Positions 21,725 to 47,365 of a DNA stretch of 47,365 nucleotides are shown in pieces. A program made the position numbers and the translations under genes. How positions within the stretch are numbered: the first letter of the stretch is position 1; each line of letters begins with the position of its first letter. The notes under the pieces are model-generated. The model was not told where the DNA came from and made no database searches. It was given only the letters and a program-made list of their open reading frames with translations. The stretch covers positions 1-47,365 of the forward strand of contig PSRN01000280.1 of NCBI GenBank assembly GCA_003176075.1, read 5' to 3'. Origin of the DNA: Bdellovibrio sp. (GTDB taxonomy: Bacteria > Bdellovibrionota > Bdellovibrionia > Bdellovibrionales > Bdellovibrionaceae).

Positions 21725-21763
21725 AATTTGCTTTTGGTGGGCTTGTACTCTGAACCCTTGGAA

Positions 21764-22713: not shown

Positions 22714-22734
22714 ACCAATAAATTATGTTATTTT

Positions 22735-22851: not shown

Positions 22852-22911
22852 TTAAATCTAAATTTTCAGAGAAGGCTCGCGTATTTTCAACCAAAACTAA
22901 ACGCAGTTTAC

Positions 22912-22969
22912 GATGTATTATAAGTCATCATTATTACATTTTTTGATGTATTAAAAGACATCATTATTA
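22912..22969. repeat. Two 25-bp direct repeats with 33-bp period
   Basis: The copies are GATGTATTATAAGTCATCATTATTA (22912-22936) and GATGTATTAAAAGACATCATTATTA (22945-22969), with 2 mismatches. Each contains GATG...CATC. Confidence 0.75.
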
Positions 22970-22987
22970 TTGATTTTCAGACCTGCC

Positions 22988-23389: not shown

Positions 23390-23422
23390 GCGATCGAAGT
23401 GCCTCTCCTGGAAGTGCCTTTC

Positions 23423-24535
23423 CTACTTCACCCATTTCTCCGACGACGGAGGATTCGGCGCCACCTTCTGCAAATTCACGCCGGCGCGGGCCTTTTTCAA
23501 ATCACGCCAGCTTTTGCCCTTGCGGGCTTCGGCGTTCACCTGGAATGAGTTCACCGCTTTCGTATGCGAAGCCAGATCCTTGGAAAAGATATGAGTGCCG
23601 TTGTTGCGACTGACGAAGTACAGGTAATCGGACGGCACCGGTTGAACCGCCGCGACAAGGGCCGCCTCGCCGGGACTGGCGATCGGACCCGGCGGCAAGC
23701 CGGTTCTGGTGTAAGTGTTGTACTCGGTCGGGCGGTTCAGATCAGCGCGGGTGATGTTCATGCTCAAATGTCCCTCCACCACCGCCTTGCCGTAAAGCAC
23801 TGTTGGATCCGTCTGCAGCATCATTCCCTTCGCCAAGCGATTGTGAAAGACGCTGGAGATGACCGGCCGCTCTTCCGGCGCCCCCGTTTCCTTTTCGATG
23901 ATGCTGGCCAAAGTGACCACCTGATGCCTGGACATCTTGACCTTGGTGGCCAGAGGCTCGGCCGAGCGACGATAGACGGCAAGAAATCGCTCCACCATCC
24001 CTCGAACAATACTGCGAAGGTCGGAGTACCTGGTGATCTGATAAGTCTCGGGATAAAGATACCCTTCCAAAGAGAAAATATTTTCCCCCAGCAGCTCCTT
24101 GATGAAAGCCCGGTCATGGACGGTCTTCCAAAATTCCGTTCGCGTGCCAAAACCGTGTTCCTCAAAGGCCGCGCTGATTTCAAAAAGATTCAGACCTTCA
24201 GCGATAGTAAAGTTTCTTCCCACCGACTTGCCGCTGGTGATGATTTGCAGGACTTCCATCGGCCGAAGATTGCGGCTCAGCTGGTATTCGCCCACTTTTA
24301 ACCCGTTCGACTGTCCGCTGATCTTGGCCATGACCAGAAACCAAGTCGCTCCCTTCACAACGCCCAAATTCTCCAACTCACGCGCGACCTGATGCAAATT
24401 CTTCCCCGGCTTGACTTCGTAAATGAAACCCTCAGCCGAACCCGAGGGCGATGTATTCAAGAACTGCTGCCACATCAGCCACGCCGCCGCCGCGGCAGCG
24501 ACAATACAGATGATGAAAATCGACAGTACTTTCAT
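23423..24535 (-). CDS. mltG: Endolytic murein transglycosylase MltG (YceG family)
   Basis: It has an N-terminal TM and YceG-type motifs: LASIIEKET, ISSVFHNRL, MMLQTDPTVLYG, YNTYTRTGLPPGPIASPG and YLYFVS. Confidence 0.85.
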   Translation of the reverse strand: MKVLSIFIICIVAAAAAAWLMWQQFLNTSPSGSAEGFIYEVKPGKNLHQVARELENLGVVKGATWFLVMAKISGQSNGLKVGEYQLSRNLRPMEVLQIITSGKSVGRNFTIAEGLNLFEISAAFEEHGFGTRTEFWKTVHDRAFIKELLGENIFSLEGYLYPETYQITRYSDLRSIVRGMVERFLAVYRRSAEPLATKVKMSRHQVVTLASIIEKETGAPEERPVISSVFHNRLAKGMMLQTDPTVLYGKAVVEGHLSMNITRADLNRPTEYNTYTRTGLPPGPIASPGEAALVAAVQPVPSDYLYFVSRNNGTHIFSKDLASHTKAVNSFQVNAEARKGKSWRDLKKARAGVNLQKVAPNPPSSEKWVK

Positions 24536-34960: not shown

Positions 34961-35602
34961 ATGGGTGGAGTAAGAAAGAGAAACAAAATAAGAAAATTAA
35001 AGGCCAAGAAGGCCGGCGGTCTCGTGGATGCACTATTCACATCGACGCAGCAGAAAGTCTTCCGCCTGATTTTCGGTCAGCCAGACCGGAAGTTTTTCGC
35101 ACAAGAGCTAATTGATCTTTGTAGGGCCGGATCTGGCGCGGTCCAAAGAGAAATTGCCGCCCTTCTTGAGAGCGGCCTTGTGACGGCTGAAGTGATCGGA
35201 AAGCAAAAATACTATCAGGCAAACAAGGATTCACCGATTTTTGAAGAGCTTTTTCAAATCGTACAAAAGACCATCGGCCTGGCCGGGCCGATCAAGGATG
35301 CGCTTGAATCTCTCGGTACGCCAATCAAGCTAGCTTTTATCTTTGGATCGCTTGCAAAGGGCTCGGCAAAGTCGGGAAGCGATGTCGATGTGCTAGTGGT
35401 TTCGGATGGCGTCGCTCAAGACGAACTCTACGCTGCGTTAGAGCCCATAGAGCAAATTCTCGCTCGAAAAATAAATCCCCTATTGTATTCGTCTTCAGAA
35501 TTCAGAGACCGGGTAAATTCCAAAAACGCTTTTCTCGAGACGGTACTTTCGGGTGAACGCATTCCATTAGTTGGGGATGAAAATGTCATCACAGTTGGAT
35601 AA
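34961..35602 (+). CDS. wHTH plus minimal nucleotidyltransferase (MNT-type) protein
   Basis: The N-terminal winged HTH is FAQELIDLCRAGSGAVQREIAALLESGLV. The NTase motif is FGSLAKGSAKSGSDVDVLVV. Confidence 0.7.
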   Translation: MGGVRKRNKIRKLKAKKAGGLVDALFTSTQQKVFRLIFGQPDRKFFAQELIDLCRAGSGAVQREIAALLESGLVTAEVIGKQKYYQANKDSPIFEELFQIVQKTIGLAGPIKDALESLGTPIKLAFIFGSLAKGSAKSGSDVDVLVVSDGVAQDELYAALEPIEQILARKINPLLYSSSEFRDRVNSKNAFLETVLSGERIPLVGDENVITVG

Positions 35603-36008
35603 TTTGGTTAGAATCGGCACACTTGAGAAAGAGAATCCCTCTCAGTCAGAGTTTGATGGCCTTTTCAAGGCAGGAAGTGCGAAGCTAAAAGATTCAGAAA
35701 GCAAGGCTTTGAGTCTTGAAAGCCGGTTTGAGCTCTCTTATGCTGCAGCTCACTCCTTTGCATTGGCTGCTTTGAGATGGCATGGTTACCGGCCTAAAAA
35801 TCGATATTCAGTTTTTCAGGCCCTCTCCCATACGACAAAAATGACGAAAATTGAGATTCGAGTACTGAGCGATGCGCACGAAAAACGGAACAGAAGCGCG
35901 TATGAAGGCATGTGGGAAGTCACCTCGGCAATGGTGGAAGCGATGATTCGCGCGACCAATGAGCTGCGTAATCAAATCGTGACACTCGGACCTGTCGGCG
36001 GGGAATAG
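35577..36008 (+). CDS. Putative HEPN-like partner of the nucleotidyltransferase
   Basis: It overlaps the MNT gene by 26 nt. It is all-helical by composition, and the C-terminal DAHEKRNRSAYEG resembles HEPN R..x..Y-type motifs but lacks the canonical Rx4-6H. Confidence 0.45.
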   Translation: MKMSSQLDNLVRIGTLEKENPSQSEFDGLFKAGSAKLKDSESKALSLESRFELSYAAAHSFALAALRWHGYRPKNRYSVFQALSHTTKMTKIEIRVLSDAHEKRNRSAYEGMWEVTSAMVEAMIRATNELRNQIVTLGPVGGE

Positions 36009-36540
36009 CTCGGTTTTGCGGAGCCTTCACGTGCTCCCAGATCATGGTGAATTCATCGCCTCCCATGCTCATGTACAGCCAAAGCTCCTCACGAGCGATA
36101 CGCGCCGGCGTCGATGAAACGTGATCTTGATGCATGTCTTGGTCGAGTGAGCATTCCGAAGCATTGCGTGGATTCACCCAAGTGACCTTGTCGATGAAAA
36201 AACCGGTATCAAACCGCCACTCACCGCGCCTTTCGCAAAAGCCTTCTTCGTTGCGCCGGTACCAACGAAGGATATCCGTTCCGTCAGCTTTGAACTCAAA
36301 GGTCACCAGCAAATTCGGGTTGAGATTGGGGTTCTCCTGGCCTTGATAGATATAGCGGACGTAGTGCCAACGCCCCAGCCACTCCGGAGGATGAAGAGGA
36401 TCGCGATTTTCGCCTACTTCGGGCACTTCAGGCATTTCGCGACTGTCGTGCATTTCGCCCATTATTGAAGACCCATGACTGGCACCCAAGAACGAAAAGA
36501 AAACTGACAGTGATATAAAAATTTGACGAGTGAAAAACAC
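35920..36540 (-). CDS. Hypothetical secreted protein
   Basis: GTG 36540 lies 6 nt after GGAGG. The signal peptide is VFFTRQIFISLSVFFSFLGASHG. The track start at 36630 is over-extended. The 3' end overlaps the convergent HEPN-like ORF by 89 nt. Confidence 0.55.
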   Translation of the reverse strand: MFFTRQIFISLSVFFSFLGASHGSSIMGEMHDSREMPEVPEVGENRDPLHPPEWLGRWHYVRYIYQGQENPNLNPNLLVTFEFKADGTDILRWYRRNEEGFCERRGEWRFDTGFFIDKVTWVNPRNASECSLDQDMHQDHVSSTPARIAREELWLYMSMGGDEFTMIWEHVKAPQNRAIPRRQVRVSRFDYAAHWSRESSLPPLPR

Positions 36541-36751
36541 GAACCCCCTCCAACTCTGTCTGACTAACAGACACCCCCGGCGAGCTGTCAATAACTTCAT
36601 CAACACTCTAGTTACCGTTTGGGCGCCCACAAGTCATTTTGAGACAAAAGTTTGATTTTTTGTCCGTCTTTCCAACGATGCGGCAAAATGGAGTTAACGG
36701 ATTAGTTTAACCCGCCGAATGGACATCGGCACTGTTATCGGAGAAACGAAA

Positions 36752-36952
36752 ATGAAACACTTAAAGGCTTTCGCTCAGCAGCTTTGGAAAGATGAATCAG
36801 GTCAAGGCATGGCCGAGTACGTTTTACTGATCGTGGTGATTATCGCTGTGGCCGCCGTTTTCAAGGATCCCATCATCAAGATGGTACAGGGCAAAATGCA
36901 GGTGGTCTCAGAAAAGTTTGGTAGCTTTGGCAACTCTGACATGGGGAACTGA
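36752..36952 (+). CDS. flp: Flp-family type IVb pilin
   Basis: ATG 36752 follows GGAGA. It has the Flp signature G/QGMAEY followed by the hydrophobic VLLIVVIIAVAAVF. It is 66 aa. Confidence 0.85.
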   Translation: MKHLKAFAQQLWKDESGQGMAEYVLLIVVIIAVAAVFKDPIIKMVQGKMQVVSEKFGSFGNSDMGN

Positions 36953-36993
36953 TTTCGCGACAGGCGCTCGCGCGCCAAAAAAGGGAGCTTTGC

Positions 36994-37185
36994 ATGATCC
37001 TCGAGTACATACTGCTCCTCACCCTGACGGTTGTGTTTGTCGTGTCGATCATTTTCCAGGGCCCCTTTGATGCATTCACCAATGCCGGACCGAAACTGGC
37101 GGCACGGGTCGAGAAAAATTTGATGACGGGCGACCTGTACCCCGTCAGCGCTCAGGGTGGGCCACTGAACTGGCAGGAGCATTGA
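36994..37185 (+). CDS. Leaderless Flp-like small hydrophobic protein
   Basis: GGGAG lies 7 nt before the ATG. The N-terminus MILEYILLLTLTVVFVVSIIF mimics a mature Flp N-terminus without a leader. Confidence 0.55.
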   Translation: MILEYILLLTLTVVFVVSIIFQGPFDAFTNAGPKLAARVEKNLMTGDLYPVSAQGGPLNWQEH

Positions 37186-37224
37186 CCTGGCAAGGAAATT
37201 TAACCCGCAAGAAAGGTGATTCCC

Positions 37225-37743
37225 ATGAACGGGGCCCTGGGATGGCAATCATTCATCGCAATCGGCCTGCTCAGCGCGGCGGTGATCGACGATTTGCGCT
37301 CCCGCAAGGTTCATAATTCACTGGTCCTCGTCAGCTTCTCGATTGCCTTGGTGTCCGCCTTGGTCTCCGCTTTTTTGACCCCTCAGACCGAGGTGGTCAC
37401 TCCCTTCCTGAGTTTCCTGGCTGCCATGGCCCTTGGGCTTCCGCTTTATGCGTTTCGCGTGATCGGTGGCGGCGATTACAAGCTGATGATGGCTGTATCT
37501 CCGTTGCTCTTGCCCGCGAGCTTACCGCAATTTTTTTTCGCCAGCCTGGCGTGGGGAGCACTGCTGGGACTGGTGCTGGCCGTTCAAGAGGGCCAGACAG
37601 GCGGTTCCGCGGCGGGGTCGACCTTTCGAAATATCGGCCAAATCCTGATGTTGCATCGGCCGGATCCTTCTTCGCTTCGTAAGATCCCTTTCACGGTCGG
37701 AATTTTCTTCGGCTATTTGAGCTTACTGCGCGGCGGGGGTTGA
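37225..37743 (+). CDS. cpaA: Prepilin peptidase CpaA/TadV (A24 family)
   Basis: The two Asp motifs are VIDDLRSRKVHN and GGGDYKLM. It is a polytopic membrane protein. Confidence 0.8.
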   Translation: MNGALGWQSFIAIGLLSAAVIDDLRSRKVHNSLVLVSFSIALVSALVSAFLTPQTEVVTPFLSFLAAMALGLPLYAFRVIGGGDYKLMMAVSPLLLPASLPQFFFASLAWGALLGLVLAVQEGQTGGSAAGSTFRNIGQILMLHRPDPSSLRKIPFTVGIFFGYLSLLRGGG

Positions 37744-37766
37744 TCAGAAAACAGGGGGAGCTATCA

Positions 37767-38066
37767 GTGGAATCAAGGGAATCAAGCCGAGTCAGAATAC
37801 AGAAAGGGAAAGCCGAATGCGGCCAGGTGATTCTGGAGAACATTCTCTTGATGGTGGTCTTACTCGGGGTGGCTTCGGTCCTTGTGAAGAGCCTTATCGG
37901 TGCCGAAGCGGCCACGCAATTTACCGAAGGCCCTTGGGATATGCTGAACGGAATGATCCAGTGCGGGGTATGGAAACCCTGTGGCATCGGCCAGCCGGCA
38001 CCGGCTCTTCATCCCAATTCCGGGAATCGAATCCTTTCCTACGATCCGTTCACGGAGGGGCAATGA
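37767..38066 (+). CDS. TadE/TadF-like pseudopilin
   Basis: GTG 37767 lies 6 nt after GGGGGAG. The processing-type motif is G/QVILE followed by NILLMVVLLGVASVLV. Confidence 0.6.
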   Translation: MESRESSRVRIQKGKAECGQVILENILLMVVLLGVASVLVKSLIGAEAATQFTEGPWDMLNGMIQCGVWKPCGIGQPAPALHPNSGNRILSYDPFTEGQ

Positions 38067-38680
38067 ATCACAGGTTCCACGAACGAGGCTTTATCATCCC
38101 CGATTTTATTTTTTCAATCCTCCTCGCGTCGGCTCTTGGCGTGCTGATGTTCTCAGTGAGCTACTCGTTGGCGGTTGTCGAAATCACCCAATATGTCAGT
38201 TACTCCATCGCCAGGGCGCACTTGGCAGGGAACAAGAGTTCCGCCGCTCAGAAACAAAAGGCCATGGCCAAGTACAATTCGCTGGTGAACAGCAGGTCCT
38301 CGCTCTCGCAAATTTATAAAAACGGTTGGTTTGAAGCGGCCAGACCTGATATTCGCGGCGGTCCCTCCGCCGACGGCCAGACTTTTAACCGGGACCTGGC
38401 GGGAGGCAGCGATAAACCCAGCCGGAACTGGTTTATCGGCGTCAGCATTCCACTCAACATCAAACTTCTGCAACTTCAATTGCCGCTTCTCGGGGACTCG
38501 GCCCCCAATCATCCGAATGGTTTTCTGACCCATATCAGCTCGATGTTGATCCGCGAGGTCTCAGAAGATGAATGCCGGAAATTCATGACCAGCCGGGGCG
38601 ATGCCCTCGGGCAGTTACCCTCGGGGCAACAATTTTATCGCAGAGACGCCTATGTGCCCTTGGAGGACAACGGATGTTGA
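38063..38680 (+). CDS. TadE-like pilus assembly protein
   Basis: ATG 38063 overlaps the previous stop (ATGA). The N-terminus is RG/FIIPD followed by FIFSILLASALGVLMF. Confidence 0.55.
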   Translation: MNHRFHERGFIIPDFIFSILLASALGVLMFSVSYSLAVVEITQYVSYSIARAHLAGNKSSAAQKQKAMAKYNSLVNSRSSLSQIYKNGWFEAARPDIRGGPSADGQTFNRDLAGGSDKPSRNWFIGVSIPLNIKLLQLQLPLLGDSAPNHPNGFLTHISSMLIREVSEDECRKFMTSRGDALGQLPSGQQFYRRDAYVPLEDNGC

Positions 38681-39216
38681 AGACTCAACCCGAAACCCGA
38701 GTTCAATCCCAAGCCGGCACGGCTTCCATTGAAATGGTCCCCTTGCTGCTGCTCTTTGCGATGCTGTTCAATTTCACGCTGGGATTTTTCGGAATTATTC
38801 ATTCGGGAATTTTGCAAAACATTGCCGCCCGCAACTACGCGTTTGAGACCTTCCGCAATCGTCCCAATTTGGCTTATCTGCGCGATGAGATCAATTTGGA
38901 GCGGACCCTTGATCGCGAGATCCAGTCCAGGTACTCCCTTAAAAATTTGCGCTACCATGGCATCGTCGCCGAAAGCGGCGGCGAAGTTTGGCCAGTCACA
39001 AAGCGCCCGATCCGTTTCACCGACGTCGCGTCGCCAGACCCCAACCAAGCTCCAGCGTCGGACCACAAGCAGTTGGTCCGGCAGGTTCAGAGTACAGGCA
39101 AAGTTTCCGAAACCTTTACGGGGAAGACGGCCAGGGAAGATAAGTTCGGATTCAACGTGGTTTGGCTGCAAATTCTCTACGGCATTTGTTTAAAGGCGAG
39201 TTGCCGGCCCGAATGA
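38674..39216 (+). CDS. TadE-like pilus assembly protein
   Basis: ATG 38674 overlaps the previous stop. The motif is G/TASIE followed by MVPLLLLFAMLFNFTLGFF. Confidence 0.6.
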   Translation: MLKTQPETRVQSQAGTASIEMVPLLLLFAMLFNFTLGFFGIIHSGILQNIAARNYAFETFRNRPNLAYLRDEINLERTLDREIQSRYSLKNLRYHGIVAESGGEVWPVTKRPIRFTDVASPDPNQAPASDHKQLVRQVQSTGKVSETFTGKTAREDKFGFNVVWLQILYGICLKASCRPE

Positions 39217-39280
39217 TGCCGGGCCGGGGTGTTGTGAAACAAGGTCATGCAAGAGTGAAAGACTTTATAGGTGAAAGGCC

Positions 39281-40168
39281 ATGAATAACGAAACAAGAAC
39301 CCTTTGGATTTCCGTGGCGGCAGGCCTTTTTGCCATGTTTCTTGTTTACAGTTTTTTGCAAGAGCAGAAAGCGGAAATCATTAAACCTTACGGCGGATTG
39401 ATGAACGTGGTGGTCGCGGCCAAAGACATTCGCGAGATGGAGACGATTGACGATTCGATGATTGAGACGAAGGAAAAGCCCCAGAGTTTCGTCGAACCCG
39501 GCGCGATTCGAAATCCTGACGAAGTCGTCGGCCAGGTTTCAGTGGCCGCCGTCAAAAAGGGCGAACAGATCCTGCAAACCAAACTGCTGCAACCGGGGCC
39601 CCAGACAGGAATTTCAATGCAGGTTCAGCCGACTAAACGAGCCATCACCTTGCCGGTGAATGAGTACTCGGGCGTGGCCCGCTTAATCCGCCCCGGTGAC
39701 CGGGTCGATATCATCGCCGCCGTCGACGTCGGCAAAGGACCCAACCAGAAGCGCGAGGTGTCCACCATCCTGATGGACGTGCCCGTGCTCGCCACCGGGG
39801 TGAACGTCGTGAATAATATTCCCCGCGTCTTCGAGGTCGATGACTCCGCCAAGTCCGTAAATCAAATCACCCTCACCGGGGATAGCAAGTACGCCTCGGT
39901 GACCATCGAGGTCTCACCGAAGGAAGCCCAGGACCTCGTTTACTTGATGGCCACCGGTGGAGCGAACAATATCTACTTCACCTTGAAGAATCCCAATGAC
40001 CGCACCGGCCAGCCACGGCTGCCCTCTTCGACGGCCGAAGGCGTGACGGGTCGTCCGGTGATGGACCTGACCCCGGCGCCTTTGCCGCCTCCTTCCGCCC
40101 CAACCGTGGCGGCACCGGCCCCCCTGAAGGCCTCGCCGCGACCTCGCAAAGGATATCGGCCACTATGA
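39281..40168 (+). CDS. cpaB: Flp pilus assembly protein CpaB/RcpC
   Basis: It has an N-terminal TM, SAF-like and RcpC-like regions (VVVAAKDI...GEQILQTKL; ITLPV...VARLIRPGDRVDIIA) and a Pro-rich tail. Confidence 0.8.
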   Translation: MNNETRTLWISVAAGLFAMFLVYSFLQEQKAEIIKPYGGLMNVVVAAKDIREMETIDDSMIETKEKPQSFVEPGAIRNPDEVVGQVSVAAVKKGEQILQTKLLQPGPQTGISMQVQPTKRAITLPVNEYSGVARLIRPGDRVDIIAAVDVGKGPNQKREVSTILMDVPVLATGVNVVNNIPRVFEVDDSAKSVNQITLTGDSKYASVTIEVSPKEAQDLVYLMATGGANNIYFTLKNPNDRTGQPRLPSSTAEGVTGRPVMDLTPAPLPPPSAPTVAAPAPLKASPRPRKGYRPL

Positions 40169-41811
40169 CGAATCGATCGGCCCGCTTCGTCTGCTTAACC
40201 CGCTTCGTCTGCTTGAGCCGCTTCGGTTCCTTGAGCCGCTTCGTCCCCTTGAGCCGCTTCGCGGTGGGACTGTTGGTGTTTTTCATGACCGCCCATGTTC
40301 TTGATTGGCTGGATGGGCAGGAGGCGAGAGCGCAGGAACTCCCGAGCCCCGCCGAGGAGACAGTCAAGGAACCGCCAAAAAAGAAAAAACCGAGGCGCCG
40401 GAAATTCTTGAGTCTCACTCTCGGGGTGGAGGCGGACGAAAAACTCAATTTCCAAGTCAAGGAACCCAAACCCAAAGGGGATTACAAAAGGGTCGTCAAA
40501 GTCGAGTACTCGCCCGAGATCAATTCCTTGCGGCTGACCCCGATTGCCGAGGGGATCGCGACCCTGCAAATTTATGACAAGAAGGATCCCAACAAGCGCA
40601 TTCTTTCCGAGTTCCGGCTTGAGGTCCGCAAGAGTCGCCTCGATTCAGTCGCGCGCGAAATCAAAAGCCTGCTCGGCGATATCGAGGGCATCACCATCAA
40701 AATCGTCAACAACAAAGTCATCGTTGACGGGCAAATCGTCATTCCCAAGGACATGAACCGCATCTACACCGTCGTGCAACAGTATGGCGACCAAGCCACT
40801 TCGCTGGTGACCATGTCGCCCCTGGCGCAAAAAAGAATCGCTGAATTCATTGAAAAAGACATCGGCAACCCCGAGGTGCGGGTGCGGGCTCTTAACGACA
40901 AATTTATTTTGGAGGGGATGGTCAACAACGACGAGGAAAAGACGCGGGCTGAAATCGTCGCCAAAACCTACGTCCAACCCGTGTTCCTTGAGCCGGCCGA
41001 GCGCGAAGGGGTGCTTAAGAAGCCCCGACCCGCGAACGACGGCATCATCAACTTGATCAATGTTCGGCTCGCGGGTCCACCACCGACTCCGAAGCACGTT
41101 CAAATCGTTGTTCACTATGTGGAGCTTTCAAAATCCTACCAAAAAGGCTTTCGCTTTCAATTCACGCCGAACCTGCAAGACAATTCCCATGCCACATTCT
41201 CCACCGGCAACACCCAATCAACCAGTTCAGGGTGGGCGCTCACTGGCATCATCGACAACTTGTTTCCGAAACTCAATTGGTCAAAGCAACATAACTACGC
41301 GCGTGTTTTAGAAAGTTCGACCTTGATTATTCAAGACGGTAAAAAAGGAGTTTTGAATTCCGTCCAGGAAGTCCCCTACCAAACCGCGGCGGGACTCAAC
41401 GGTAGCGTCCCCGTCACCGCCTTCAAGGATGTCGGAATTGCCACGGCGATCACTCCCATCACCCTCAATGAACGATCTGATTCAATCAGTCTTTCGATGG
41501 AATTCGACATCAGCGCCCTCGTTGGAATGACCGATCAAGGGCCCCTCACCCACCGCAATAAAATCACCACCGATTTGATTATTCGCAGCGGCCAAAGTGC
41601 CGCCATCGGCGGGCTGATCACCAATGGGGCTTCGACCGACTACAACAAGACCCCCAAGGGATACCCGGACAACCCGATCATCAGCCTTTTCGCCTCGAAA
41701 GCGTTTCAAAGAAATCAATCCCAGTTCGTCGTGTTTGTGACTCCAATTATTAAGAGCCATGCCAGCGCTGGTTCCGAAAAGGTGAAGCGGAAGTTCCGGC
41801 TGAGCCAGTAA
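40165..41811 (+). CDS. cpaC: Flp pilus secretin CpaC/RcpA
   Basis: It has a BON/secretin-N-like region and a C-terminal secretin domain (LESSTLIIQDGKKGVLNSVQEVPY...IRSGQSAAIGGLI...VVFVTPIIK). The ATG overlaps the cpaB stop. The true start may be GTG at about 40264, after the repeats. Confidence 0.85.
   Translation: MTNRSARFVCLTRFVCLSRFGSLSRFVPLSRFAVGLLVFFMTAHVLDWLDGQEARAQELPSPAEETVKEPPKKKKPRRRKFLSLTLGVEADEKLNFQVKEPKPKGDYKRVVKVEYSPEINSLRLTPIAEGIATLQIYDKKDPNKRILSEFRLEVRKSRLDSVAREIKSLLGDIEGITIKIVNNKVIVDGQIVIPKDMNRIYTVVQQYGDQATSLVTMSPLAQKRIAEFIEKDIGNPEVRVRALNDKFILEGMVNNDEEKTRAEIVAKTYVQPVFLEPAEREGVLKKPRPANDGIINLINVRLAGPPPTPKHVQIVVHYVELSKSYQKGFRFQFTPNLQDNSHATFSTGNTQSTSSGWALTGIIDNLFPKLNWSKQHNYARVLESSTLIIQDGKKGVLNSVQEVPYQTAAGLNGSVPVTAFKDVGIATAITPITLNERSDSISLSMEFDISALVGMTDQGPLTHRNKITTDLIIRSGQSAAIGGLITNGASTDYNKTPKGYPDNPIISLFASKAFQRNQSQFVVFVTPIIKSHASAGSEKVKRKFRLSQ
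40182..40265 (+). repeat. 18-bp tandem repeat x4.5 at the 5' end of cpaC
   Basis: The units are CCGCTTCGTCTGCTTAAC, CCGCTTCGTCTGCTTGAG, CCGCTTCGGTTCCTTGAG, CCGCTTCGTCCCCTTGAG and CCGCTTCGCGGT. If translated they encode (A/T/S)RF(V/G)(C/S/P)L hexapeptides. Confidence 0.85.
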
Positions 41812-41830
41812 AACCAATACAGGAGACTCC

Positions 41831-44089
41831 GTGATCTTAAGCCCGAATTCAAATGTCATCGCGGTGAGCGGCGGAAAGGGCGGAGTCGGCAAGTCCGTCT
41901 TTTCCGCCAATCTGGCCGCGGCAATCCTGACGGAGTTGAAGACGCAAGTCTTGCTGATCGACGCTGACGCCCGCTCCTGCGGCGACCAGAACGTCATTCT
42001 CGGTCTCAGACCCCAAAAGACGATTGAAGAGGTTTCGACTTTTCAGGGATCTCTATCACCGCAATCCATTCCCCAAATGGTGACCGCCCACCCCTCGGGC
42101 TTGAGCTACATCGGGGCGGTTCGGGGGCCTGAGGAAATGCTCAAGGCCAACCCCGACGCCTTTATGAAACCGCTCGAGTTTCTCTCCCGGCACTTTAAAT
42201 TTATCGTCATCGACGTGGGAAGCGATCTCAACCCTTTGCAGGCGCAGCTCATCCATGAATCCACCGCCTTGATTATTCTCACCGTGCCGGAAGTTCTCGT
42301 CGTCAATCAAACGCAACGACTGATCCAATCCCTCCTTACGGCGACCCTGCCGTTTGACATGTTTCAACTCGTCATCAACAAAGTCGGCCCGGGCAGCCTT
42401 TCCCCCCAGGCCATAGCGCAAAGCCTTCGCTTGAACGCCATTGGCCTGATCCCCCAAGACGATATCACCACCGCGACCAGCTTATCGAAGTCGACCCCTT
42501 TCGTGCTGGCGGCCCGCCAGGCCCCGGTGACCGCGGCCTACCACGAAGTCGTCCGTAAACTCACCGGCGGCATTCTCCAGCGTCTTAAGTTAGTGCAAAA
42601 ACCACAGAGTTTGAACCTGAGCGCCGCCATCGCCTCGGGGGCCAAGGCTGGTGAAAAGCCCTCGGCCGCGCAGGCCAACGCCGCACTCCTGAGTAATGCC
42701 GGCGAAGAGACCGACCCGCGCAATATTCTCAAGCTCCGCATCCATTCGGAACTTATTCGGGCGATGGACCTCAAAAAGGGGATTGCCGACACCAATGGGG
42801 ACAAGGCGAAGGAAGAGGCCCTCCGGCAAAAAACACTCGCGACCATCACCACCATTATCGATAAAGAAGCGCAGGGGATCGCGCGCGATGAGCGCTCACG
42901 AATCATTAAAGAAGTTTTGGAAGAAGCACTCGGTTTGGGCCCGCTGGAGGATCTTCTTGCCGATCCGGCGGTCACCGAAATCATGGTCAACGGCTACCGG
43001 AGAATATTTATCGAAAAATCGGGGAAGTTGATCATGACGCCGGTCACTTTCACCTCGAACCTCCATTTGCGCAACGTCATCGAGCGGATCGTCACCCCCC
43101 TGGGCCGCCGAATTGACGAGAAAAATCCCTATGTCGATGCGCGCCTGAAAGACGGCAGCCGCGTCAACGCCATTATCGAGCCTTTGTCGATCGATGGCCC
43201 CGCCTTGACCATTCGAAAATTCAAAAAAGGCGGTATTACTGCCGAACGTTACATCGAATGGGGATCGATGACCAAATCGATGGTCGATTTTCTGCGCATT
43301 TGTGTTGAAAACGCGCTCAACGTGGTGATCTCGGGCGGAACCGGCTCCGGTAAAACCTCGCTGCTCAACATGCTTTCGACATTTATTCCTTCAAGTGAGC
43401 GGATCGTCACGGTGGAAGACGCGGCTGAATTGCAACTGCAACAGGAACACGTGGTGCGGCTTGAACCCCGCCCCGCCAACATGGAGGGGACAGGCGCGGT
43501 GACGATTCGCGATCTGGTCCGCAACTCGCTGAGGATGCGGCCCAATCGAATCATCGTCGGTGAAACCCGGGACGGCGCCGCCCTCGATATGTTGCAAGCC
43601 ATGAACACCGGTCATGACGGTTCAATGACGACAACCCACGCGAACAGTCCGCGCGAGTGCATCTCGCGCCTTGAAACCCTCTGTCTGATGGCCGGCATGG
43701 AGCTTCCGGTTCGCGCCATCCGCGAGCAAATCTCCAGCGCCGTGCAACTGATCGTGCAGATTTCACGGCTCTCCGACGGCAGCCGCAAAGTCACCAGCAT
43801 CACCGAAGTCGTCGGCATGCAGGGGGACACGGTCACCATGCAGGAGATCTTCCGCTTCAAGGAAACGGGATACGACAAGAACCGAAGAATCGTCGGTGTC
43901 TTTCAAGCAATGGGACTTATCCCCACCTTCATTGAGAAACTGGAACAAAAGGGCGTCATCATCCCACGTGATATCTTCTCCAATGAACCGCCCAAACCGG
44001 CCGCCGCGGCGGTCAACAAGACCGCGTCGCTGATGCCCGCCAGCCTGCCCAACCTGAAAAAAACCGGAAGCGCGGGAGGAAAAGCGTGA
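41831..44089 (+). CDS. Fused CpaE/TadZ-like (MinD/ParA) and CpaF/TadA secretion ATPase (752 aa)
   Basis: AGGAG lies 5 nt before the GTG. Residues 1 to ~250 are MinD/ParA-like (VIAVSGGKGGVGKS, LLIDAD). The C-terminal ~450 aa are CpaF-like (SGGTGSGKTSLLN, RIIVGETRDGAALDML, GHDGSMTTTHANS). Confidence 0.85.
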   Translation: MILSPNSNVIAVSGGKGGVGKSVFSANLAAAILTELKTQVLLIDADARSCGDQNVILGLRPQKTIEEVSTFQGSLSPQSIPQMVTAHPSGLSYIGAVRGPEEMLKANPDAFMKPLEFLSRHFKFIVIDVGSDLNPLQAQLIHESTALIILTVPEVLVVNQTQRLIQSLLTATLPFDMFQLVINKVGPGSLSPQAIAQSLRLNAIGLIPQDDITTATSLSKSTPFVLAARQAPVTAAYHEVVRKLTGGILQRLKLVQKPQSLNLSAAIASGAKAGEKPSAAQANAALLSNAGEETDPRNILKLRIHSELIRAMDLKKGIADTNGDKAKEEALRQKTLATITTIIDKEAQGIARDERSRIIKEVLEEALGLGPLEDLLADPAVTEIMVNGYRRIFIEKSGKLIMTPVTFTSNLHLRNVIERIVTPLGRRIDEKNPYVDARLKDGSRVNAIIEPLSIDGPALTIRKFKKGGITAERYIEWGSMTKSMVDFLRICVENALNVVISGGTGSGKTSLLNMLSTFIPSSERIVTVEDAAELQLQQEHVVRLEPRPANMEGTGAVTIRDLVRNSLRMRPNRIIVGETRDGAALDMLQAMNTGHDGSMTTTHANSPRECISRLETLCLMAGMELPVRAIREQISSAVQLIVQISRLSDGSRKVTSITEVVGMQGDTVTMQEIFRFKETGYDKNRRIVGVFQAMGLIPTFIEKLEQKGVIIPRDIFSNEPPKPAAAAVNKTASLMPASLPNLKKTGSAGGKA

Positions 44090-45000
44090 ACGATTCAGCC
44101 GCCCAAGTCGGTGCCTTCGGCATCTCCGCAGTGCTTGCCAGTCCCTGGATTGCACTGCCCCTGATCGGGATTTGCGTCACCGTCGTCGTGTTTCTATGGT
44201 TCGACAGGCTCCTGGGGCGCTTTCTTTCGCGCATGACCTTCACCCGCGACGAAATGCTCCGTTACCTCGATATGATGCACGTCACGGCCGAGTCGAACAG
44301 GGTGACCGCGCTGCAACTTCTCGCGAGTTTGGGTCTTGGAGTGATCTTCTTTCTTCTTCTTTGGCCCCGCGCCACCCTCGGCTTGATCGTCGCCGGAGCG
44401 GTGACGGTCGGCATGTGGAATATCCCCTTGCTGTTGATCAAACGCCAATGGGAAAAGCGCTGCAATTTGTTTGTCGATCAAATGGTGGATGCGCTGACCA
44501 TCATGGCCAATGGCGTAAAGGCGGGCCTCTCCGTCACGCAATCCATGGACCGTGTCGTGGAGAACATGCCCAATCCCATTTCCCAGGAATTCAACCTGGC
44601 CCTCAGCCAAATTCGCATTGGCCGCAGCGTGGAGGAAGCCTTGCTTGACCTCGGAGAACGGATCCCCAAGGCCGACGTGCAGATGTTCGTTACCGCCATC
44701 AATATTCTAAAGGAAACCGGTGGCAATCTCGCTGAAACATTCCAGACCATCGTCGTGACGATCCGCGAACGGCAAAAGGTGGAGCGAAAAATCGAGGCGA
44801 TGACCGCGCAAGGAATCATGCAGGGTTTTATCGTATCGATGGTGCCCATCGGATTGATCACGATGTTTTATATCGTGGACCCCGGCTACATCACCCCGAT
44901 GTTCACCTCGACCTTGGGAATAATCCTTCTTTTGATCATGCTGGTTCTCATAGTTATCGGTGGTATTGCGATCCGAAGAGTTGTTACAATTAAGGTGTAA
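44086..45000 (+). CDS. tadB: Type II secretion F-domain platform protein TadB/TadC (single copy)
   Basis: GTG 44086 lies 6 nt after GGAGG and overlaps the cpaF stop. An alternative GTG at 44131 lies right after the repeat. T2SSF-type TM/cytoplasmic topology is present (ALTIMANGVKAGLSVTQSM, FVTAINILKETGGNLAE). Confidence 0.8.
   Translation: MNDSAAQVGAFGISAVLASPWIALPLIGICVTVVVFLWFDRLLGRFLSRMTFTRDEMLRYLDMMHVTAESNRVTALQLLASLGLGVIFFLLLWPRATLGLIVAGAVTVGMWNIPLLLIKRQWEKRCNLFVDQMVDALTIMANGVKAGLSVTQSMDRVVENMPNPISQEFNLALSQIRIGRSVEEALLDLGERIPKADVQMFVTAINILKETGGNLAETFQTIVVTIRERQKVERKIEAMTAQGIMQGFIVSMVPIGLITMFYIVDPGYITPMFTSTLGIILLLIMLVLIVIGGIAIRRVVTIKV
44102..44131 (+). repeat. Hairpin element copy at the cpaEF/tadB junction
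   Basis: The sequence is CCCAAGTCGGTGCCTTCGGCATCTCCGCAG, and its last G begins GTG 44131. Confidence 0.8.
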
Positions 45001-45028
45001 CGAATTTGCGGATGCGTGGGCGGCACCG

Positions 45029-45058
45029 CCCAAGTCGGTGCCTCAGGCACCTCCGCAG
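45029..45058 (+). repeat. Hairpin element copy at the tadB/YD-repeat gene junction
   Basis: The sequence is CCCAAGTCGGTGCCTCAGGCACCTCCGCAG. The loop is TCA instead of TTC and the stem is intact. It lies 23 nt before ATG 45082. Confidence 0.8.
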
Positions 45059-45081
45059 ACGCCACGGGTGGAGTGTCACGG

Positions 45082-46761
45082 ATGATGCAATATTGTTTGT
45101 CGGTTTTCGCCGGTCTTTGGCTGTGGAGCGGTCTGGTCTTCTGGTCTCCGTCCGCCATGGCCCTGGTGGACATGAAGACGGCCAATTATGCCCAATCATG
45201 GACAGACATTGAGCTTCCTTCAGCCGCCAACCAGTTCAAAATGAAAATCGAACGAACATACAACAGCCGCTCGCTTTACGAGGGCATGTTCGGGTTCGGC
45301 TGGTGCTCCAGCTTCGAGACCAAGATTGAAGTGACCCCTGAAGGCAGCATTCGTTTGACTGAATGCGGGGCCGGCCAAGAGGTCCTTTACATGGCCCATG
45401 AGTCAAGCCGCAAGGACATCGACAACACGATCAATCAGATCATACCGAAACTGAGGGAAAGTAAGAAATTCGACGACAAGGGACTTCACAACCTCGCTGA
45501 GGATTTGATCACCAATCATAAGCTGCGGACCAGGTACGCCAACGAATTTAAAATCAGGGTGGAACCCAAGGACGGAGTCCAGTATCTCGCCAACGGCCGG
45601 GAAGTTGAATCCTTCAGTTACGCCAAAGGGGTCTTTACGCGAAAGATGCCGGGCGGAACCCAAATGCGCTTTAATCGAGACGGAAAATTGACTCAACTTA
45701 CGGATTCGGCGGGAAATTTCCTCAAGTTGGACTACGAAAAGGACGCGCTCCAGGAAATCACCGACAACAACGGCCGAAAATTCAGCTTCAAGTACTACAA
45801 CAACAAGAAAGTCAAAACCATCAACGGCCCCAACGCCAACGCGGAATACAAATTCGAGGGACTCGTTGACCTGGTCAGCGTCAAGAACCAATGGGGAAAC
45901 GTCTACACCTACGATTACGACGACGAACACAATCTCACGAAAGTGACCTATCCGGACAAGACCTTCGTCAAACTTGATTACAACAAGGAAAAAGATTGGG
46001 TCATCCGCTTCCTCGACCGCGACAAATGTGTCGAGGATTACGCCTATGAAATGGATCCGGCGGAACCCAAATTACACTATTGGTCCACGGTCAAGAAAGT
46101 GTGCAACTCCCAGGTCGTCACCGAGAGCAAGCACGAATTCGTCCACAAGAAACGATCGGACGGCCAGATTTATTTGCAGAAAGTGGTCTCCACCGTGGAC
46201 GGCAATGTGACGGAGGTTCTCTACCACGAAATATTCGGCAAACCGATTTCAGTTCGACGAAACGCCGACGCCACCAATTATGAGTATTACCCAAACGGGC
46301 TGGTGAAAATCAAGAGCTCCGCGGCTATCCGGCAACTGTTCAAATACGAAACGCGTTTCAACAAAGTGTCCGAAGTGACCACCACTTTTTTGAACGCCAA
46401 GGGGAAGAAAGTCAGCTCAAAAGAATCGTTCTTTGAATACGATAAGCACGGCAATATCTCGTTGGCGAGGAATTCCGATGGCCAGAAGGTCACCATGACT
46501 TACGATGATCGCGGCCGGGTCAAGACCATGTTGGATCAAGCCAAGAAAATTATGAAAGTTGAGTACGAGGAGCGCTTTGGCAAGCCTTCGGTCATCACTC
46601 GGCCAGGATTGGGAACAATCAAGGTAAGTTATAAGGGCACGGGCGAAATCGACAAGGTCAATAGCGGAGAAGGGGGTTCGGTGGCGATGCAAGTGGCGAG
46701 CATTTTTAACAACCTTCTCGAAATTCTTTCACCGGCGACTCCCGAAGTGTATACTCAGTAA
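45082..46761 (+). CDS. Secreted YD/RHS-repeat protein without a recognisable toxin tip (559 aa)
   Basis: ATG 45082 follows GGTGGAG. The signal peptide is MMQYCLSVFAGLWLWSGLVFWSPSAMA. YD-type repeats include YTYDYDDEHNLTKVTYPD, NYEYYPNGLVK and FEYDKHGNISLARNSDGQKVTMTYDDRGRV. There is no PxxxxDPxGL core or C-terminal extension. Confidence 0.75.
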   Translation: MMQYCLSVFAGLWLWSGLVFWSPSAMALVDMKTANYAQSWTDIELPSAANQFKMKIERTYNSRSLYEGMFGFGWCSSFETKIEVTPEGSIRLTECGAGQEVLYMAHESSRKDIDNTINQIIPKLRESKKFDDKGLHNLAEDLITNHKLRTRYANEFKIRVEPKDGVQYLANGREVESFSYAKGVFTRKMPGGTQMRFNRDGKLTQLTDSAGNFLKLDYEKDALQEITDNNGRKFSFKYYNNKKVKTINGPNANAEYKFEGLVDLVSVKNQWGNVYTYDYDDEHNLTKVTYPDKTFVKLDYNKEKDWVIRFLDRDKCVEDYAYEMDPAEPKLHYWSTVKKVCNSQVVTESKHEFVHKKRSDGQIYLQKVVSTVDGNVTEVLYHEIFGKPISVRRNADATNYEYYPNGLVKIKSSAAIRQLFKYETRFNKVSEVTTTFLNAKGKKVSSKESFFEYDKHGNISLARNSDGQKVTMTYDDRGRVKTMLDQAKKIMKVEYEERFGKPSVITRPGLGTIKVSYKGTGEIDKVNSGEGGSVAMQVASIFNNLLEILSPATPEVYTQ

Positions 46762-46771
46762 AGGAGTACCT

Positions 46772-47224
46772 GTGAGGCGCCTCATTTTAAGATTCATGTT
46801 ACGATTCATGCTTTTTATGAGCGGAACGAGCGTCCTGGCTGATCTGCCCTTGCCAGCCCGGGCCGACGAGGAGACAAAAGCGGCTCCTGCTGAAAAGGGT
46901 ATGGCCTCCGAAAAGGTTATTAAGGCCAGCGCGTGTAACCAAGTCGCTGCAGGCGACCCCAACCAACCCTGCCGGAAAGACAAACCACGGGGCGAGGATT
47001 CTCAAAGAGAACTGGCCACGGAGGCCAATACAGCTAATTTGGTTTTTGCTTCACTTCCATCGGATGGTCCAGCCCCTTTCAACAGCCCCGACATGTTGGT
47101 GGGCACGATCACCCGAGCCGCGCCTGGACCGTCCAGTGCCTCCGCGGCCAATGCCCTTTCCCCCACCGCTGTATCGTCAGCACCCGCCGTACCGTCTTCT
47201 AGTAAGGCCTTAGGAAATAAGTAG
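46772..47224 (+). CDS. Small secreted Ala/Pro/Ser-rich low-complexity protein
   Basis: AAGGAG lies 6 nt before the GTG. The signal peptide MRRLILRFMLRFMLFMSGTSVLA contains a 12-nt tandem duplication encoding RFML. The rest is compositionally biased and probably disordered. Confidence 0.6.
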   Translation: MRRLILRFMLRFMLFMSGTSVLADLPLPARADEETKAAPAEKGMASEKVIKASACNQVAAGDPNQPCRKDKPRGEDSQRELATEANTANLVFASLPSDGPAPFNSPDMLVGTITRAAPGPSSASAANALSPTAVSSAPAVPSSSKALGNK

Positions 47225-47365
47225 CGGGCAATAAGAAGGAAAGAGACCAGCCAATCACTGGGTAATTACACAATCATTAGGGCGGCAACCAGGATCTTTC
47301 TATTTTTAGTGGTGTTTCTGTGGATAAGTGAACCTGGACCCGCCCTTGGATAAGACTTTGTTATG

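Follow-up and report, generated by a model that had tools for sequence, protein, structure and literature searches.

[quoted passage not shown] In strain HD100, Bd0109 (Capeness et al. 2013, PMC3818213) is a YD-repeat protein with DUF6531, RHS repeats and a C-terminal helix, and its gene, directly after tadB, is the last large one in the Flp/Tad operon. A small secreted ORF follows within about 10-20 nt and encodes Bd0108, a disordered 'lifestyle switch' protein of 101 aa (Prehna et al. 2014, PMC4267844). Loss-of-function mutations in bd0108 lead to host-independent growth in B. bacteriovorus, and the HD100 experiments showed that Bd0109 binds Bd0108 directly and that bd0109 could not be deleted, hence is apparently essential. 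The literature is split between type IVa and type IVb pili as those being regulated, and a 2025 review describes the role of bd0108 as unresolved. Bd0108 has been called 'unique to a subgroup of Bdellovibrio', and its CXXC motif is not universal, as strain W is without it. A study of Bdellovibrionales MAGs from activated sludge (Water Res X 2023, PMC10469934) found ORFs of 57-133 aa with signal peptides beside Bd0109/Bd0103 homologues, and by BLAST those beside Bd0109 homologues match Bd0108 marginally or not at all. The YD/RHS beta-hairpin spiral fold is also that of the shells of T6SS Rhs effectors, Tc toxin BC and teneurins (PDB 8QJA, 7Q97, 8H8B, 4IGL, 6FB3). The PDB holds no solved Bd0109 structure, and the best sequence matches to the protein studied here are Rhs cores over about 100 residues.

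The window analysed here is a stretch of 47,365 nt from Bdellovibrio sp. which carries a Flp/Tad operon at 36719-47224, with a YD-repeat gene and a small ORF as its 3' end (Table 1). The first-pass annotation had proposed an arrangement like that of the hit locus at the end of this operon, and the comparison with B. bacteriovorus bears it out. The B. bacteriovorus locus L001 has the order Flp, RcpC, secretin, CpaE/F fusion, T2SSF (TadB), YD protein (551 aa) and a small secreted ORF of 96 aa, and the same order is found in the closest relatives. At the position of the first gene L001 has a Flp1_like gene. In the 752-aa fusion protein of the window Pfam places CbiA/ParA at residues 8-213 and T2SSE at residues 367-659 (3.9e-59), and the relatives have the same fusion with 736-748 aa. 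Pfam found no domain in the ORFs at 37817-38680 and 38572-39216. An Rfam search of 36000-47365 gave zero RNA matches, and no convincing intrinsic terminator was seen in the 141 nt 3' of the small ORF.

Table 1. Features of the Flp/Tad operon in the window, with the basis for each assignment (the hyphen in GQG-MAEYVLLIVVIIAV marks the processing site).
Feature	Position	Strand	Basis
Flp-type pilin, operon gene 1	36719..36952	+	Flp-like processing motif and hydrophobic stretch ...GQG-MAEYVLLIVVIIAV; inspection only
Second Flp-like ORF	36994-37185		
Polytopic membrane protein, probably prepilin peptidase (TadV/CpaA-like)	37216..37743	+	inferred from position and hydrophobic N-terminus
Three TadE/pseudopilin-like ORFs	37740-38066, about 38060-38680, 38572-39216		inferred from position and hydrophobic N-termini
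CpaB/RcpC	39281..40168	+	Pfam RcpC 1.4e-19, SAF 9.5e-11
Secretin CpaC/RcpA	40165..41811	+	Pfam Secretin 4.4e-21, BON
Fused CpaE/TadZ-like ParA domain and CpaF/TadA secretion ATPase, 752 aa	41831..44089	+	Pfam
TadB-type platform protein (T2SSF), sole one in the operon	44086..45000	+	Pfam T2SSF 2e-20
Bd0109 orthologue, Sec-secreted toxin-less YD-repeat protein, 559 aa	45082..46761	+	sequence, Pfam, AF2, Foldseek
Bd0108-position gene, small secreted predicted-disordered protein, 150 aa	46772..47224	+	SD, 10-nt gap, hallmarks
Degenerate 12-nt repeat units TCATTTTAAGAT / TCATGTTACGAT / TCATGCTTTTTA	46782..46817	+	encode LILR-FMLR-FMLF in the signal peptide

The YD gene starts with an ATG and has the sequence GGTGGAG 8 nt before it. 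The hydrophobic N-terminus of its product ends in AMA-LVDMK, which aligns with the published Bd0109 cleavage site AFA-LV and follows the same AxA-LVDMK pattern. Compared with Bd0109 the signal peptide is 8 residues longer and without Lys or Arg, and a 2-residue insertion (AANQ for SG) follows the conserved Pro, P46. Pfam detects DUF6531 at residues 29-94 (E 8.5e-11) and RHS_repeat (E 3.6e-14), an architecture that is constant across the YD family. The protein is 55% identical to the B. bacteriovorus 'rhs family' protein Q68VD7/P0052 at 100% coverage (E 8e-208) and 54-56% identical to several named proteins of B. bacteriovorus and Bdellovibrio sp. Within the family it belongs to a separate clade, whose members are 61-67% identical to the window protein and about 55% to Bdellovibrio proper. 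The alignment of 78 YD sequences is collinear and has 96 invariant columns, among them the whole C-terminal helix. The divergence rate of the YD protein is that of PriA, and its median identity (54%) is close to those of TadB (55%) and the secretin (54%).

In the AF2 model of the YD protein (pLDDT 85.2, pTM 0.71) DUF6531 is a beta domain, followed by an insert of three helices, a beta-spiral of YD repeats about 360 residues long (approximately 167-528) and the conserved C-terminal helix at 532-552. Only about 30 residues, that is this helix, follow the last beta-hairpin. Foldseek matches the model to Rhs cores with probability 1.0 and E down to 3e-22, and the profile match to Rhs cores has E 1.4e-18, in agreement with a common spiral fold. 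The shells of Rhs effectors, Tc toxins and teneurins are however cocoons of about 1000 residues (the Rhs cores have 1020-1050), and the TMq is at most 0.48 and the TMt at most 0.30, with the YD spiral modelled as open and, compared with a closed Rhs cocoon, roughly 40% as large. No PxxxxDPxGL or DPxGL was found in the protein by regular expression, the nearest string being PSVITRPGL at 502. In contrast to the shells the protein has neither a core autoproteolysis motif, an encapsulated toxin nor a PAAR/VgrG/TcA-binding module, and it carries a signal for Sec export instead. By sequence the 559-aa protein is hence a full-length Bd0109 orthologue, predicted to be exported by Sec, without an autoproteolytic core motif and without a toxin. 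The signal peptide, the missing core motif and the missing toxin domain had been noted at first sight, and the analysis confirms them.

The surroundings of the YD gene were compared among the relatives. In 78/78 related loci a tadB homologue precedes the YD gene, ending at a distance of less than 400 nt. Of the related genome loci, 75 have about 200 nt or more of sequence past the YD gene, and in 72 of them the next slot is taken by a small ORF of 75-209 aa, as it is in all four closest metagenome loci; its start lies no more than about 60 nt beyond the YD stop, mostly 8-20 nt. Further 3' the relatives carry another small secreted ORF, then, in convergent orientation, a small ORF with a response regulator, and beyond these GroEL/ES. 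Among the best 80 genome matches, from 221 species with a YD relative, the genomes are Bdellovibrio, Pseudobdellovibrionaceae, Bdellovibrionales and other Bdellovibrionota, with the exception of two bins labelled Bacillota and Streptomyces (L010, L017), which are evidently mislabelled. PriA from the window shares 62-67% identity with Bdellovibrionaceae MAGs and 55-56% with B. bacteriovorus. Together PriA and the YD protein place the contig, as judged from these identities, in an uncultured Bdellovibrionaceae/Pseudobdellovibrionaceae lineage. Synteny across Bdellovibrionota and placement by priA had both been suggested as checks on the hit-locus proposal, and both came out in its favour.

The small ORF was described from the start as encoding a secreted protein of 150 aa, rich in Ala, Pro and Ser, and its coordinates and composition are as claimed. 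Its start codon is a GTG that lies exactly 10 nt past the end of the YD gene and has AAGGAG 5 nt in front of it; gaps in the relatives are 0-30 nt. In the public annotation the gene (P0121, 138 aa) begins at the internal ATG at 46808, which would remove the RFML repeat discussed below; we prefer the GTG because of the SD sequence and the spacing of 8-20 nt in the relatives. The reading frame has the best codon usage of the six, yet its LLR is 0.05 compared with 0.24-0.40 in the neighbouring genes, and GC1/2/3 is flat. The hydrophobic N-terminus ends in ARA-DEE and the mature part is of low complexity with 19% Ala, 13% Ser and 11% Pro. It contains a Cys55-x11-Cys67 loop holding GDPNQPC (61-67, with DPN at 62-64), and then the Ala/Pro/Ser-rich tail. 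AF2, run on the single sequence without an alignment, predicts a helix only at 2-18, in the signal peptide, and pLDDT is below 56 in the remainder, which under these settings fits disorder without proving it. The 150-aa gene is, judged from the DNA, in close translational coupling with the YD gene, and its product is a predicted disordered and Sec-exported protein in the Bd0108 position.

The signal peptide had been said to contain a 12-nt tandem duplication. This is true at the protein level, where RFML RFML is read, while the DNA units AGATTCATGTTA and CGATTCATGCTT are identical in only 9 of 12 nt. In another register a repeat search finds three degenerate units, a family of 83% identity, two of them identical in 10/12 nt. 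The longest exact repeat at the site is GATTCATG, of 8 nt. The direct repeats in the small ORF are all short and imperfect, and the proposal of a slippage-prone site or of a deletion hot spot is not supported. The B. bacteriovorus bd0108 region (L008), used as control for the analogy with the 42-bp deletion, has no direct repeats at seed 7.

The homology of the pair had been suggested for both members, and the two differ in this respect. That of the YD protein to Bd0109 is evident over the full length, whereas the small protein has no detectable sequence similarity to Bd0108 (BLASTP E 44, not significant). A word-indexed search of 5.8 billion sequences retrieved only the gene call of the small ORF itself, and an exhaustive phmmer search of 1.84 billion representatives gave this call and one low-complexity protein of 1419 aa; in the collections searched, both the YD protein and the small protein are known from one contig only. 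Neither phmmer nor BLAST found anything significant between the small protein and its 78 positional counterparts. The E-values from hhalign were 0.05 to the nearest clade and 0.32 to the 28-sequence Bd0108 cluster, the z-scores of shuffled Smith-Waterman alignments were 1.2-1.5, but below 0 against L008 and L001, and global identities were at the level of shuffled sequences. Homology of the small ORF to Bd0108 therefore rests on position and common hallmarks, and is not demonstrable by sequence.

The hallmarks are several. The small ORF has the same slot, strand and close coupling as bd0108, and both proteins have an AxA-DE cleavage context (ARA-DE here, ASA-DE as published), a polar low-complexity mature part predicted as coil, and exactly two cysteines. 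Both also contain DPN, which in Bd0108 lies in the Bd0109-binding segment NPGEDPNEA (residues 32-40); only this core is found in the small protein, in the different context GDPNQPC. Other traits differ. The small protein has 150 aa and C-x11-C where Bd0108 has 101 aa and CXXC, its DPN is inside the cysteine loop and not about 20 residues before it, it has a long Ala/Pro/Ser C-terminal tail, and the RLxDDTT segment of Bd0108 has only a weak counterpart in 'SLPSDG'.

These hallmarks recur among the proteins at the same position. Exactly two mature cysteines are present in 68/78 small proteins, and 42 of these 68 have CXXC. DPN is found in 35 of the 78, where 2.1 would be expected by shuffling and 1000 shuffles gave 7 at most. 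The clade nearest to the window protein has a C-x13-15-C loop with DPNAPC or GNQPC, and DPN lies within the cysteine loop in the window protein, L037, L085 and L087. L037 is a member of the Bd0108 BLAST cluster and has C-LDPNKA-C, thereby bridging both loop types. BLAST splits the small proteins into 32 clusters, despite an identity of 45% or more among their YD partners, and undetectable similarity is therefore the norm for the family in this slot and no sign of replacement. The activated-sludge study (PMC10469934) reports the same phenomenon, without the hallmarks of cysteine pair and DPN and without the long-loop (C-x11-15-C) variant of the window clade.

Taken together we consider the two terminal genes of the Tad operon to be likely the hit pair of this uncultured organism; the locus is a recognisable known one, and not a new kind of system. 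A possible alternative for one half of the pair is that the YD protein is the Bd0109 orthologue while the 150-aa ORF is a lineage-specific orphan, arisen de novo or acquired, which has replaced Bd0108 and has another function or none. The lack of any detectable similarity would fit this, as would the weak codon-usage signal with flat GC1/2/3, and the length, which is the second of all 78 proteins at the position, with an Ala/Pro/Ser-rich tail missing in the others. A preprint also states that several Pseudobdellovibrionaceae 'lack' Bd0108. On the other hand, the slot is filled at nearly all genome loci and at the four metagenome loci by ORFs whose products have a signal peptide and a cysteine pair, and in many cases DPN, and the sequences scatter over the 32 clusters regardless of the conserved YD partners. 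The C...DPNxPC loop is moreover common to the window protein and its nearest clade, and the SD sequence is strong with a coupling of 10 nt, and we find replacement by an orphan unlikely.

We see about an even prospect that the small ORFs after Bd0109 orthologues across Bdellovibrionales, the 150-aa one included, form a single hyper-divergent family of secreted disordered proteins keeping just short linear features. The features kept may be the signal peptide, a cysteine pair whose loop varies in length, and a DPN motif contacting the YD protein. If so, the window clade would be a distinct long-loop variant with DPN moved into the C-x11-15-C loop, and the rate of evolution of the small protein would exceed that of its YD partner by an order of magnitude or more.

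For the mechanism we rely on the experiments in B. bacteriovorus, a single species (PMC3818213, PMC4267844), from which all the steps are carried over and where they are themselves a model. In the hit pair of the window the disordered protein would bind the YD protein in the periplasm in a weak and dynamic manner, by way of a short motif region near its N-terminus, which in this small protein may be the Cys55-Cys67 loop with its DPN. The interaction would modulate both extrusion and retraction of type IV pili at the invasion pole, and the pilus status would gate the switch between the prey-dependent attack phase and growth. Without the small protein the pili would be expected to be deregulated and prey-independent growth to become possible, and the YD partner would likely be indispensable. 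With a monomer, the AF2 model of the YD protein makes up too little of a cocoon for the published idea of 'encapsulation'.

It might instead be argued that the YD protein is a structural or assembly part of the Tad machinery, either an accessory of the outer membrane or periplasm that takes over the missing TadC, TadD or RcpB functions or a pilus-associated adhesin, and the small protein a secreted or pilus-associated substrate and not a regulator. The operon has one T2SSF gene, no TadD/RcpB-like product was recognised and three upstream ORFs lack an assignment; the YD gene occupies the post-tadB slot at every locus, the conservation of its product matches that of the core Tad proteins, and deletion of bd0109 failed in B. 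bacteriovorus. Yet the pili altered by bd0108 alleles in B. bacteriovorus are made of the type IVa pilin PilA and not of Flp, Bd0109 is not known as a part of the Tad envelope complex, and an essential accessory of a non-essential pilus would be odd. We regard this as improbable.

That the pair derives by decay from an Rhs/YD polymorphic toxin and its immunity protein, with a mechanism unrelated to pili, is hardly credible and already largely refuted, as the RHS repeats and DUF6531 typical of Rhs toxins, the T6SS Rhs effectors as best structural matches and the small gene directly 3', where immunity genes lie, are set against the absent PxxxxDPxGL/aspartyl-protease motif, a C-terminus of only a 30-residue helix, nearly invariant in 78 sequences where polymorphic toxin ends vary, a Sec signal in place of a PAAR/VgrG-type trafficking domain, a spiral of about 40% of a cocoon, a fixed post-tadB position in 78/78 loci, divergence at the rate of PriA, a downstream protein that is itself secreted and predicted disordered, and the finding of no toxin or immunity genes 3' of the pair in the relatives. 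The first-pass annotation had likewise, on the condition of homology, preferred a regulator of pilus status to a polymorphic toxin, and neither of the observations it named as contrary to its proposal was made: the YD protein is similar to Bd0109 on a contig placed within predatory lineages, and toxin/immunity genes did not turn up downstream in the relatives.

The choice of obligate bacterial predators between hunting and growing has classically been approached in genetics through the hit locus. The window presents a divergent natural variant of it, in which the YD protein is 55% identical to Bd0109 and the sequence of the small partner is no longer recognisable, though a cysteine loop and DPN are retained. 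What is mainly added here is the fast divergence of the small partner beside a YD protein conserved like a housekeeping gene. The window protein and the other 77 small proteins narrow down the likely functional parts, which would be short motifs in the disordered protein and, in the YD protein, the nearly invariant C-terminal helix and the N-terminal domain. As a caution, BLAST alone is no basis for scoring Bd0108 as 'absent' in the comparative genomics of predators. Further, if the small ORFs do form one hyper-divergent family, the pattern suggests a lineage-specific recognition or signalling peptide which is tuned to each predator lineage.

The YD-repeat gene and the small gene behind it are closely coupled on the forward strand and form the close of the Flp/Tad operon. 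The gene order is that of the B. bacteriovorus locus (L001), where Flp, RcpC, secretin, a CpaE/F fusion (736 aa), T2SSF and a YD gene (551 aa) are followed 15 nt downstream by a 96-aa ORF, and both agree with publications that put bd0108 and bd0109 last in the type IVb pilus cluster, co-transcribed with bd0110-0111 (PMC3818213, PMC4267844). In all 78 loci with enough sequence, the YD gene has a TadB homologue ending less than 400 nt before it.

Features of the Tad operon, the predicted YD structure and the small proteins of related genome loci (L numbers)
Feature	Position	Strand	Remarks
Flp pilins	36719 and 36994	+	first genes of the Tad operon
Polytopic membrane protein, probably prepilin peptidase			after the Flp pilins
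TadE-like ORFs			between polytopic membrane protein and CpaB/RcpC
CpaB/RcpC, then secretin			after the TadE-like ORFs
Fused TadZ/CpaE-like ParA domain and CpaF/TadA ATPase	41831-44089	+	one 752-aa protein
TadB (T2SSF), single copy			last before the YD gene
YD-repeat gene	45082-46761	+	559 aa; Pfam DUF6531 (residues 29-94) and RHS_repeat
Small secreted-type gene	46772-47224	+	150 aa; GTG start; 10 nt past YD stop
YD AF2 model, beta domain	residues 37-106
YD AF2 model, three helices	residues 110-155
YD AF2 model, ~40 beta strands	residues 167-528
YD AF2 model, C-terminal helix	residues 532-552
Second small secreted ORF in relatives	L082:8234-8443, L083:8291-8524, L085:8259-8498, L087:8282-8503, L001:12167-12340
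Cysteine loop, L085 and L087			C-x15-C ending KDPNAPC; two further cysteines downstream in L087
Cysteine loop, L082			C-x14-C ending GNQPC
Cysteine loop, L002 and L083			C-x13-C

The CpaE/CpaF fusion is also present, at 736-748 aa, in B. bacteriovorus and every close relative inspected, and is the most conserved Tad protein (median identity 68%). Between 36719 and 45000 a single T2SSF (TadB-like) gene is present, and TadC, TadD and RcpB could not be recognised; a separate tadC (bd0470) is mentioned elsewhere in HD100. Just upstream of the operon lie two overlapping forward-strand ORFs (34961-36008), a 213-aa product with a GS-x10-DVD nucleotidyltransferase-like motif (FGSLAKGSAKSGSDVDVLVV) and next to it a 145-aa ORF, which together may be an MNT/HEPN-type toxin-antitoxin pair. 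Their codon-usage LLR (0.04) is at the low level of the small ORF and hints at foreign origin. Further away, the GC content falls locally to 0.41 (22001-23000) against 0.50-0.60 over the rest of the window, and the ORF list holds no ORF of at least 150 aa in 21724-23423.

Searched against 5.8 billion proteins, the YD protein gave 857 relatives. The best 120 measure 540-563 aa, except three of 527-528 aa, at 94-100% query coverage, and nearly all hold the DUF6531, RHS and TEN_YD-shell set (three are without the TEN_YD-shell entry). Named matches come from Bdellovibrio, Pseudobdellovibrionaceae or Oligoflexia only, bar one compost-metagenome entry. The B. bacteriovorus 'rhs family' protein Q68VD7 is 55% identical at 100% coverage; the YD sequences align collinearly from the signal-peptide cleavage site, where the hydrophobic N-terminus of the window protein ends AMA-LVDMK, to the last residues, and they hardly vary in the C-terminal segment RPGLGTIKVSYK..GEIDKVNS.EG.SVAMQVAS.FNNLL. 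Judged from sequence, the YD protein is hence an orthologue of Bd0109, the YD-repeat protein of the host-interaction (hit) locus. The first-pass annotation had described it as devoid of RHS core motif and toxin; indeed, a regex search detected neither PxxxxDPxGL nor DPxGL, and the chain stops ~30 residues past the last beta-hairpin.

Scanning one genome per species, we found a YD relative in 221 genomes, the best 80 of which are named as Bdellovibrionales or other Bdellovibrionota, bar two bins labelled Bacillota and Streptomyces. PriA of the window (16489-18561) is 62-67% identical to proteins of unnamed Bdellovibrionaceae/Pseudobdellovibrionaceae MAGs and 55-56% to that of B. bacteriovorus. 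From the placement of PriA and of the YD relatives, the contig therefore stems from an uncultured lineage within the predatory order. The YD protein diverges no faster than PriA, a replication housekeeping protein. Under the labels Bacillota (L010) and Streptomyces griseus (L017) the MAGs carry typical hit/Tad loci (55% identity), and a 'Bacillota' PriA too groups with Bdellovibrio PriA proteins; faulty binning or labelling of public MAGs is the most likely cause. The similarity to Bd0109 and the placement in the predatory order both bear out the earlier reading of the pair as a hit locus.

The small gene has AAGGAG 5 nt upstream of its GTG start. Its product has an N-terminus that by inspection is Sec-signal-like (MRRLILRFMLRFMLFMSGTSVLADLPLPARA-DEE), and the remainder is rich in Ala, Ser and Pro. 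The coding potential is the best of six frames, yet weak, and AF2 on the single sequence gave coil, which is only consistent with disorder. The public gene call P0121 (138 aa) starts at an internal ATG (46808), downstream of an RFML-RFML duplication, whereby the positively charged n-region of the signal peptide is lost. We favour GTG 46772, with its consensus SD sequence and a spacing as in relatives (8-20 nt), and the N-terminus is probably miscalled in P0121. The duplication, previously pointed out as slippage-prone, is real in the protein, but its DNA units are identical in only 9-10 of 12 positions with an exact core of 8 nt, so that in our view it is no notable slippage site.

BLASTP of the small protein against the 96-aa B. 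bacteriovorus protein gave an E value of 44; the 5.8-billion-sequence index returned the protein itself only, and an exhaustive search of 1.84 billion representatives added one low-complexity match. Against its nearest clade, hhalign (E 0.05, the aligned piece being exactly the Cys loop) and Smith-Waterman (z 1.2-1.5) were non-significant. We also collected proteins by position, as ORFs starting at most ~60 nt from the YD stop (most 8-20 nt after), giving 78 slot proteins: 73 loci from genome searches, four close metagenome loci and the window protein. Of the 75 related genome loci in which ~200 nt or more follow the YD stop, 72 have such an ORF. Each of the 78 proteins has a signal-peptide-like N-terminus, continued by a polar body of low complexity. 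BLASTP at E ≤1e-3 sorts them into 32 clusters despite YD partners at least 45% identical, so a lack of detectable similarity is normal for this slot.

Two hallmarks were detected in the slot family. Exactly two mature cysteines are found in 68 of 78 proteins, 42 of them with CxxC spacing, and 35 of 78 contain the tripeptide DPN, for which shuffling predicts 2.1 (7 at most in 1000). This tripeptide forms the core of NPGEDPNEA, the conserved residues 32-40 of Bd0108, shown by NMR to be part of the Bd0109-binding region (PMC4267844). Both are present in the window protein, in C55-NQVAAGDPNQP-C67, and its nearest clade has the same long loop. DPN precedes the cysteine pair in 32 proteins, lies inside the loop in four (window, L037, L085, L087) and follows it in none; L037, a member of the Bd0108 BLAST cluster, has both NPGEDPN and C-LDPNKA-C and thus bridges the two arrangements. 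We regard the small gene as most likely the counterpart of bd0108 in both position and descent. Membership is unproven by sequence, and unlike Bd0108 the window protein has no CXXC motif.

Beyond the pair, relatives carry a second small secreted, Bd0103-like ORF (57-79 aa, ~170-200 nt past the first), probably the Bd0103 equivalent, then a convergent small ORF with a response regulator and, further on, GroES/GroEL. As expected from the first-pass annotation, no toxin/immunity genes follow the pair in the B. bacteriovorus locus and the closest relatives. The second ORF is not visible in the window because this ends 141 nt after the small ORF (47225-47365), with ATG as its last three bases. The second ORFs have a 'Cys ... 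L-x-(D/N)-T-(N/D)-P' pattern that is also found in Bd0108-type proteins, in their C-terminal half (RLGDDTT / RLGDNTKP), and this points to tandem paralogues; 23 of the 78 first-slot proteins contain [LMIV]x[DNE][DNSA]T, where 4.1 were expected.

The YD protein was modelled by AF2 with a 78-sequence alignment (pLDDT 85.2, pTM 0.71). Foldseek matched the model to T6SS Rhs cores, teneurins and Tc BC components with probability 1.0, at TMq ≤0.48 and TMt ≤0.30, low scores since the matched cocoons are of ~1000 residues or more. No solved structure of Bd0109 itself was found in the PDB. The monomer is thus predicted to be an open stretch of YD spiral amounting to some 40% of a cocoon, which argues against simple encapsulation of the small protein by its YD partner, as proposed by analogy by Prehna et al. 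(PMC4267844). The published 3:1 stoichiometry and weak binding of Bd0108-Bd0109 (Kd 45 uM; PMC4267844) fit surface binding just as well.

In B. bacteriovorus the Sec signals are cleaved at AFA-LV (Bd0109) and ASA-DE (Bd0108) (PMC3818213), the two proteins bind directly, and deletion of bd0109 failed (PMC3818213, PMC4267844). Beyond the YD orthology, operon position, tight coupling, secretion signals, lack of toxin features and small-protein family hallmarks found here, we infer from that species that the two proteins would meet in the periplasm, where the small one, predicted to be disordered, would bind its partner weakly through its motif-bearing N-proximal part; the pair would tune how type IV pili are extruded and retracted at the invasive pole, and loss of the small protein would promote prey-independent growth. 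It should be noted that this pilus model is itself unsettled: according to a 2025 review the role of bd0108 awaits molecular investigation, and the pili affected are type IVa PilA pili though the genes sit in a type IVb operon. A structural or assembly role of the YD protein in the Tad machine is therefore a live rival to the tuning of pilus status.

Knowledge of the hit locus goes back to 1992, with its characterisation in 2013-2014, and a 2023 metagenomic study (PMC10469934) had noted small secreted genes arrayed next to Bd0109 homologues in MAGs of Bdellovibrionales; the present pair therefore adds to a known kind of locus. Modestly new are the long-loop variant of the small protein (C-x11-15-C with embedded DPN), the Cys-pair and DPN signature across the slot family, and the unequal divergence of the two partners, the YD protein being conserved like a housekeeping gene and the small protein hyper-divergent. 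Bd0108 is 'absent' in some reports and 'unique to a subgroup of Bdellovibrio' in the 2025 review; as a likewise modestly new caution, such statements may reflect the limits of BLAST.
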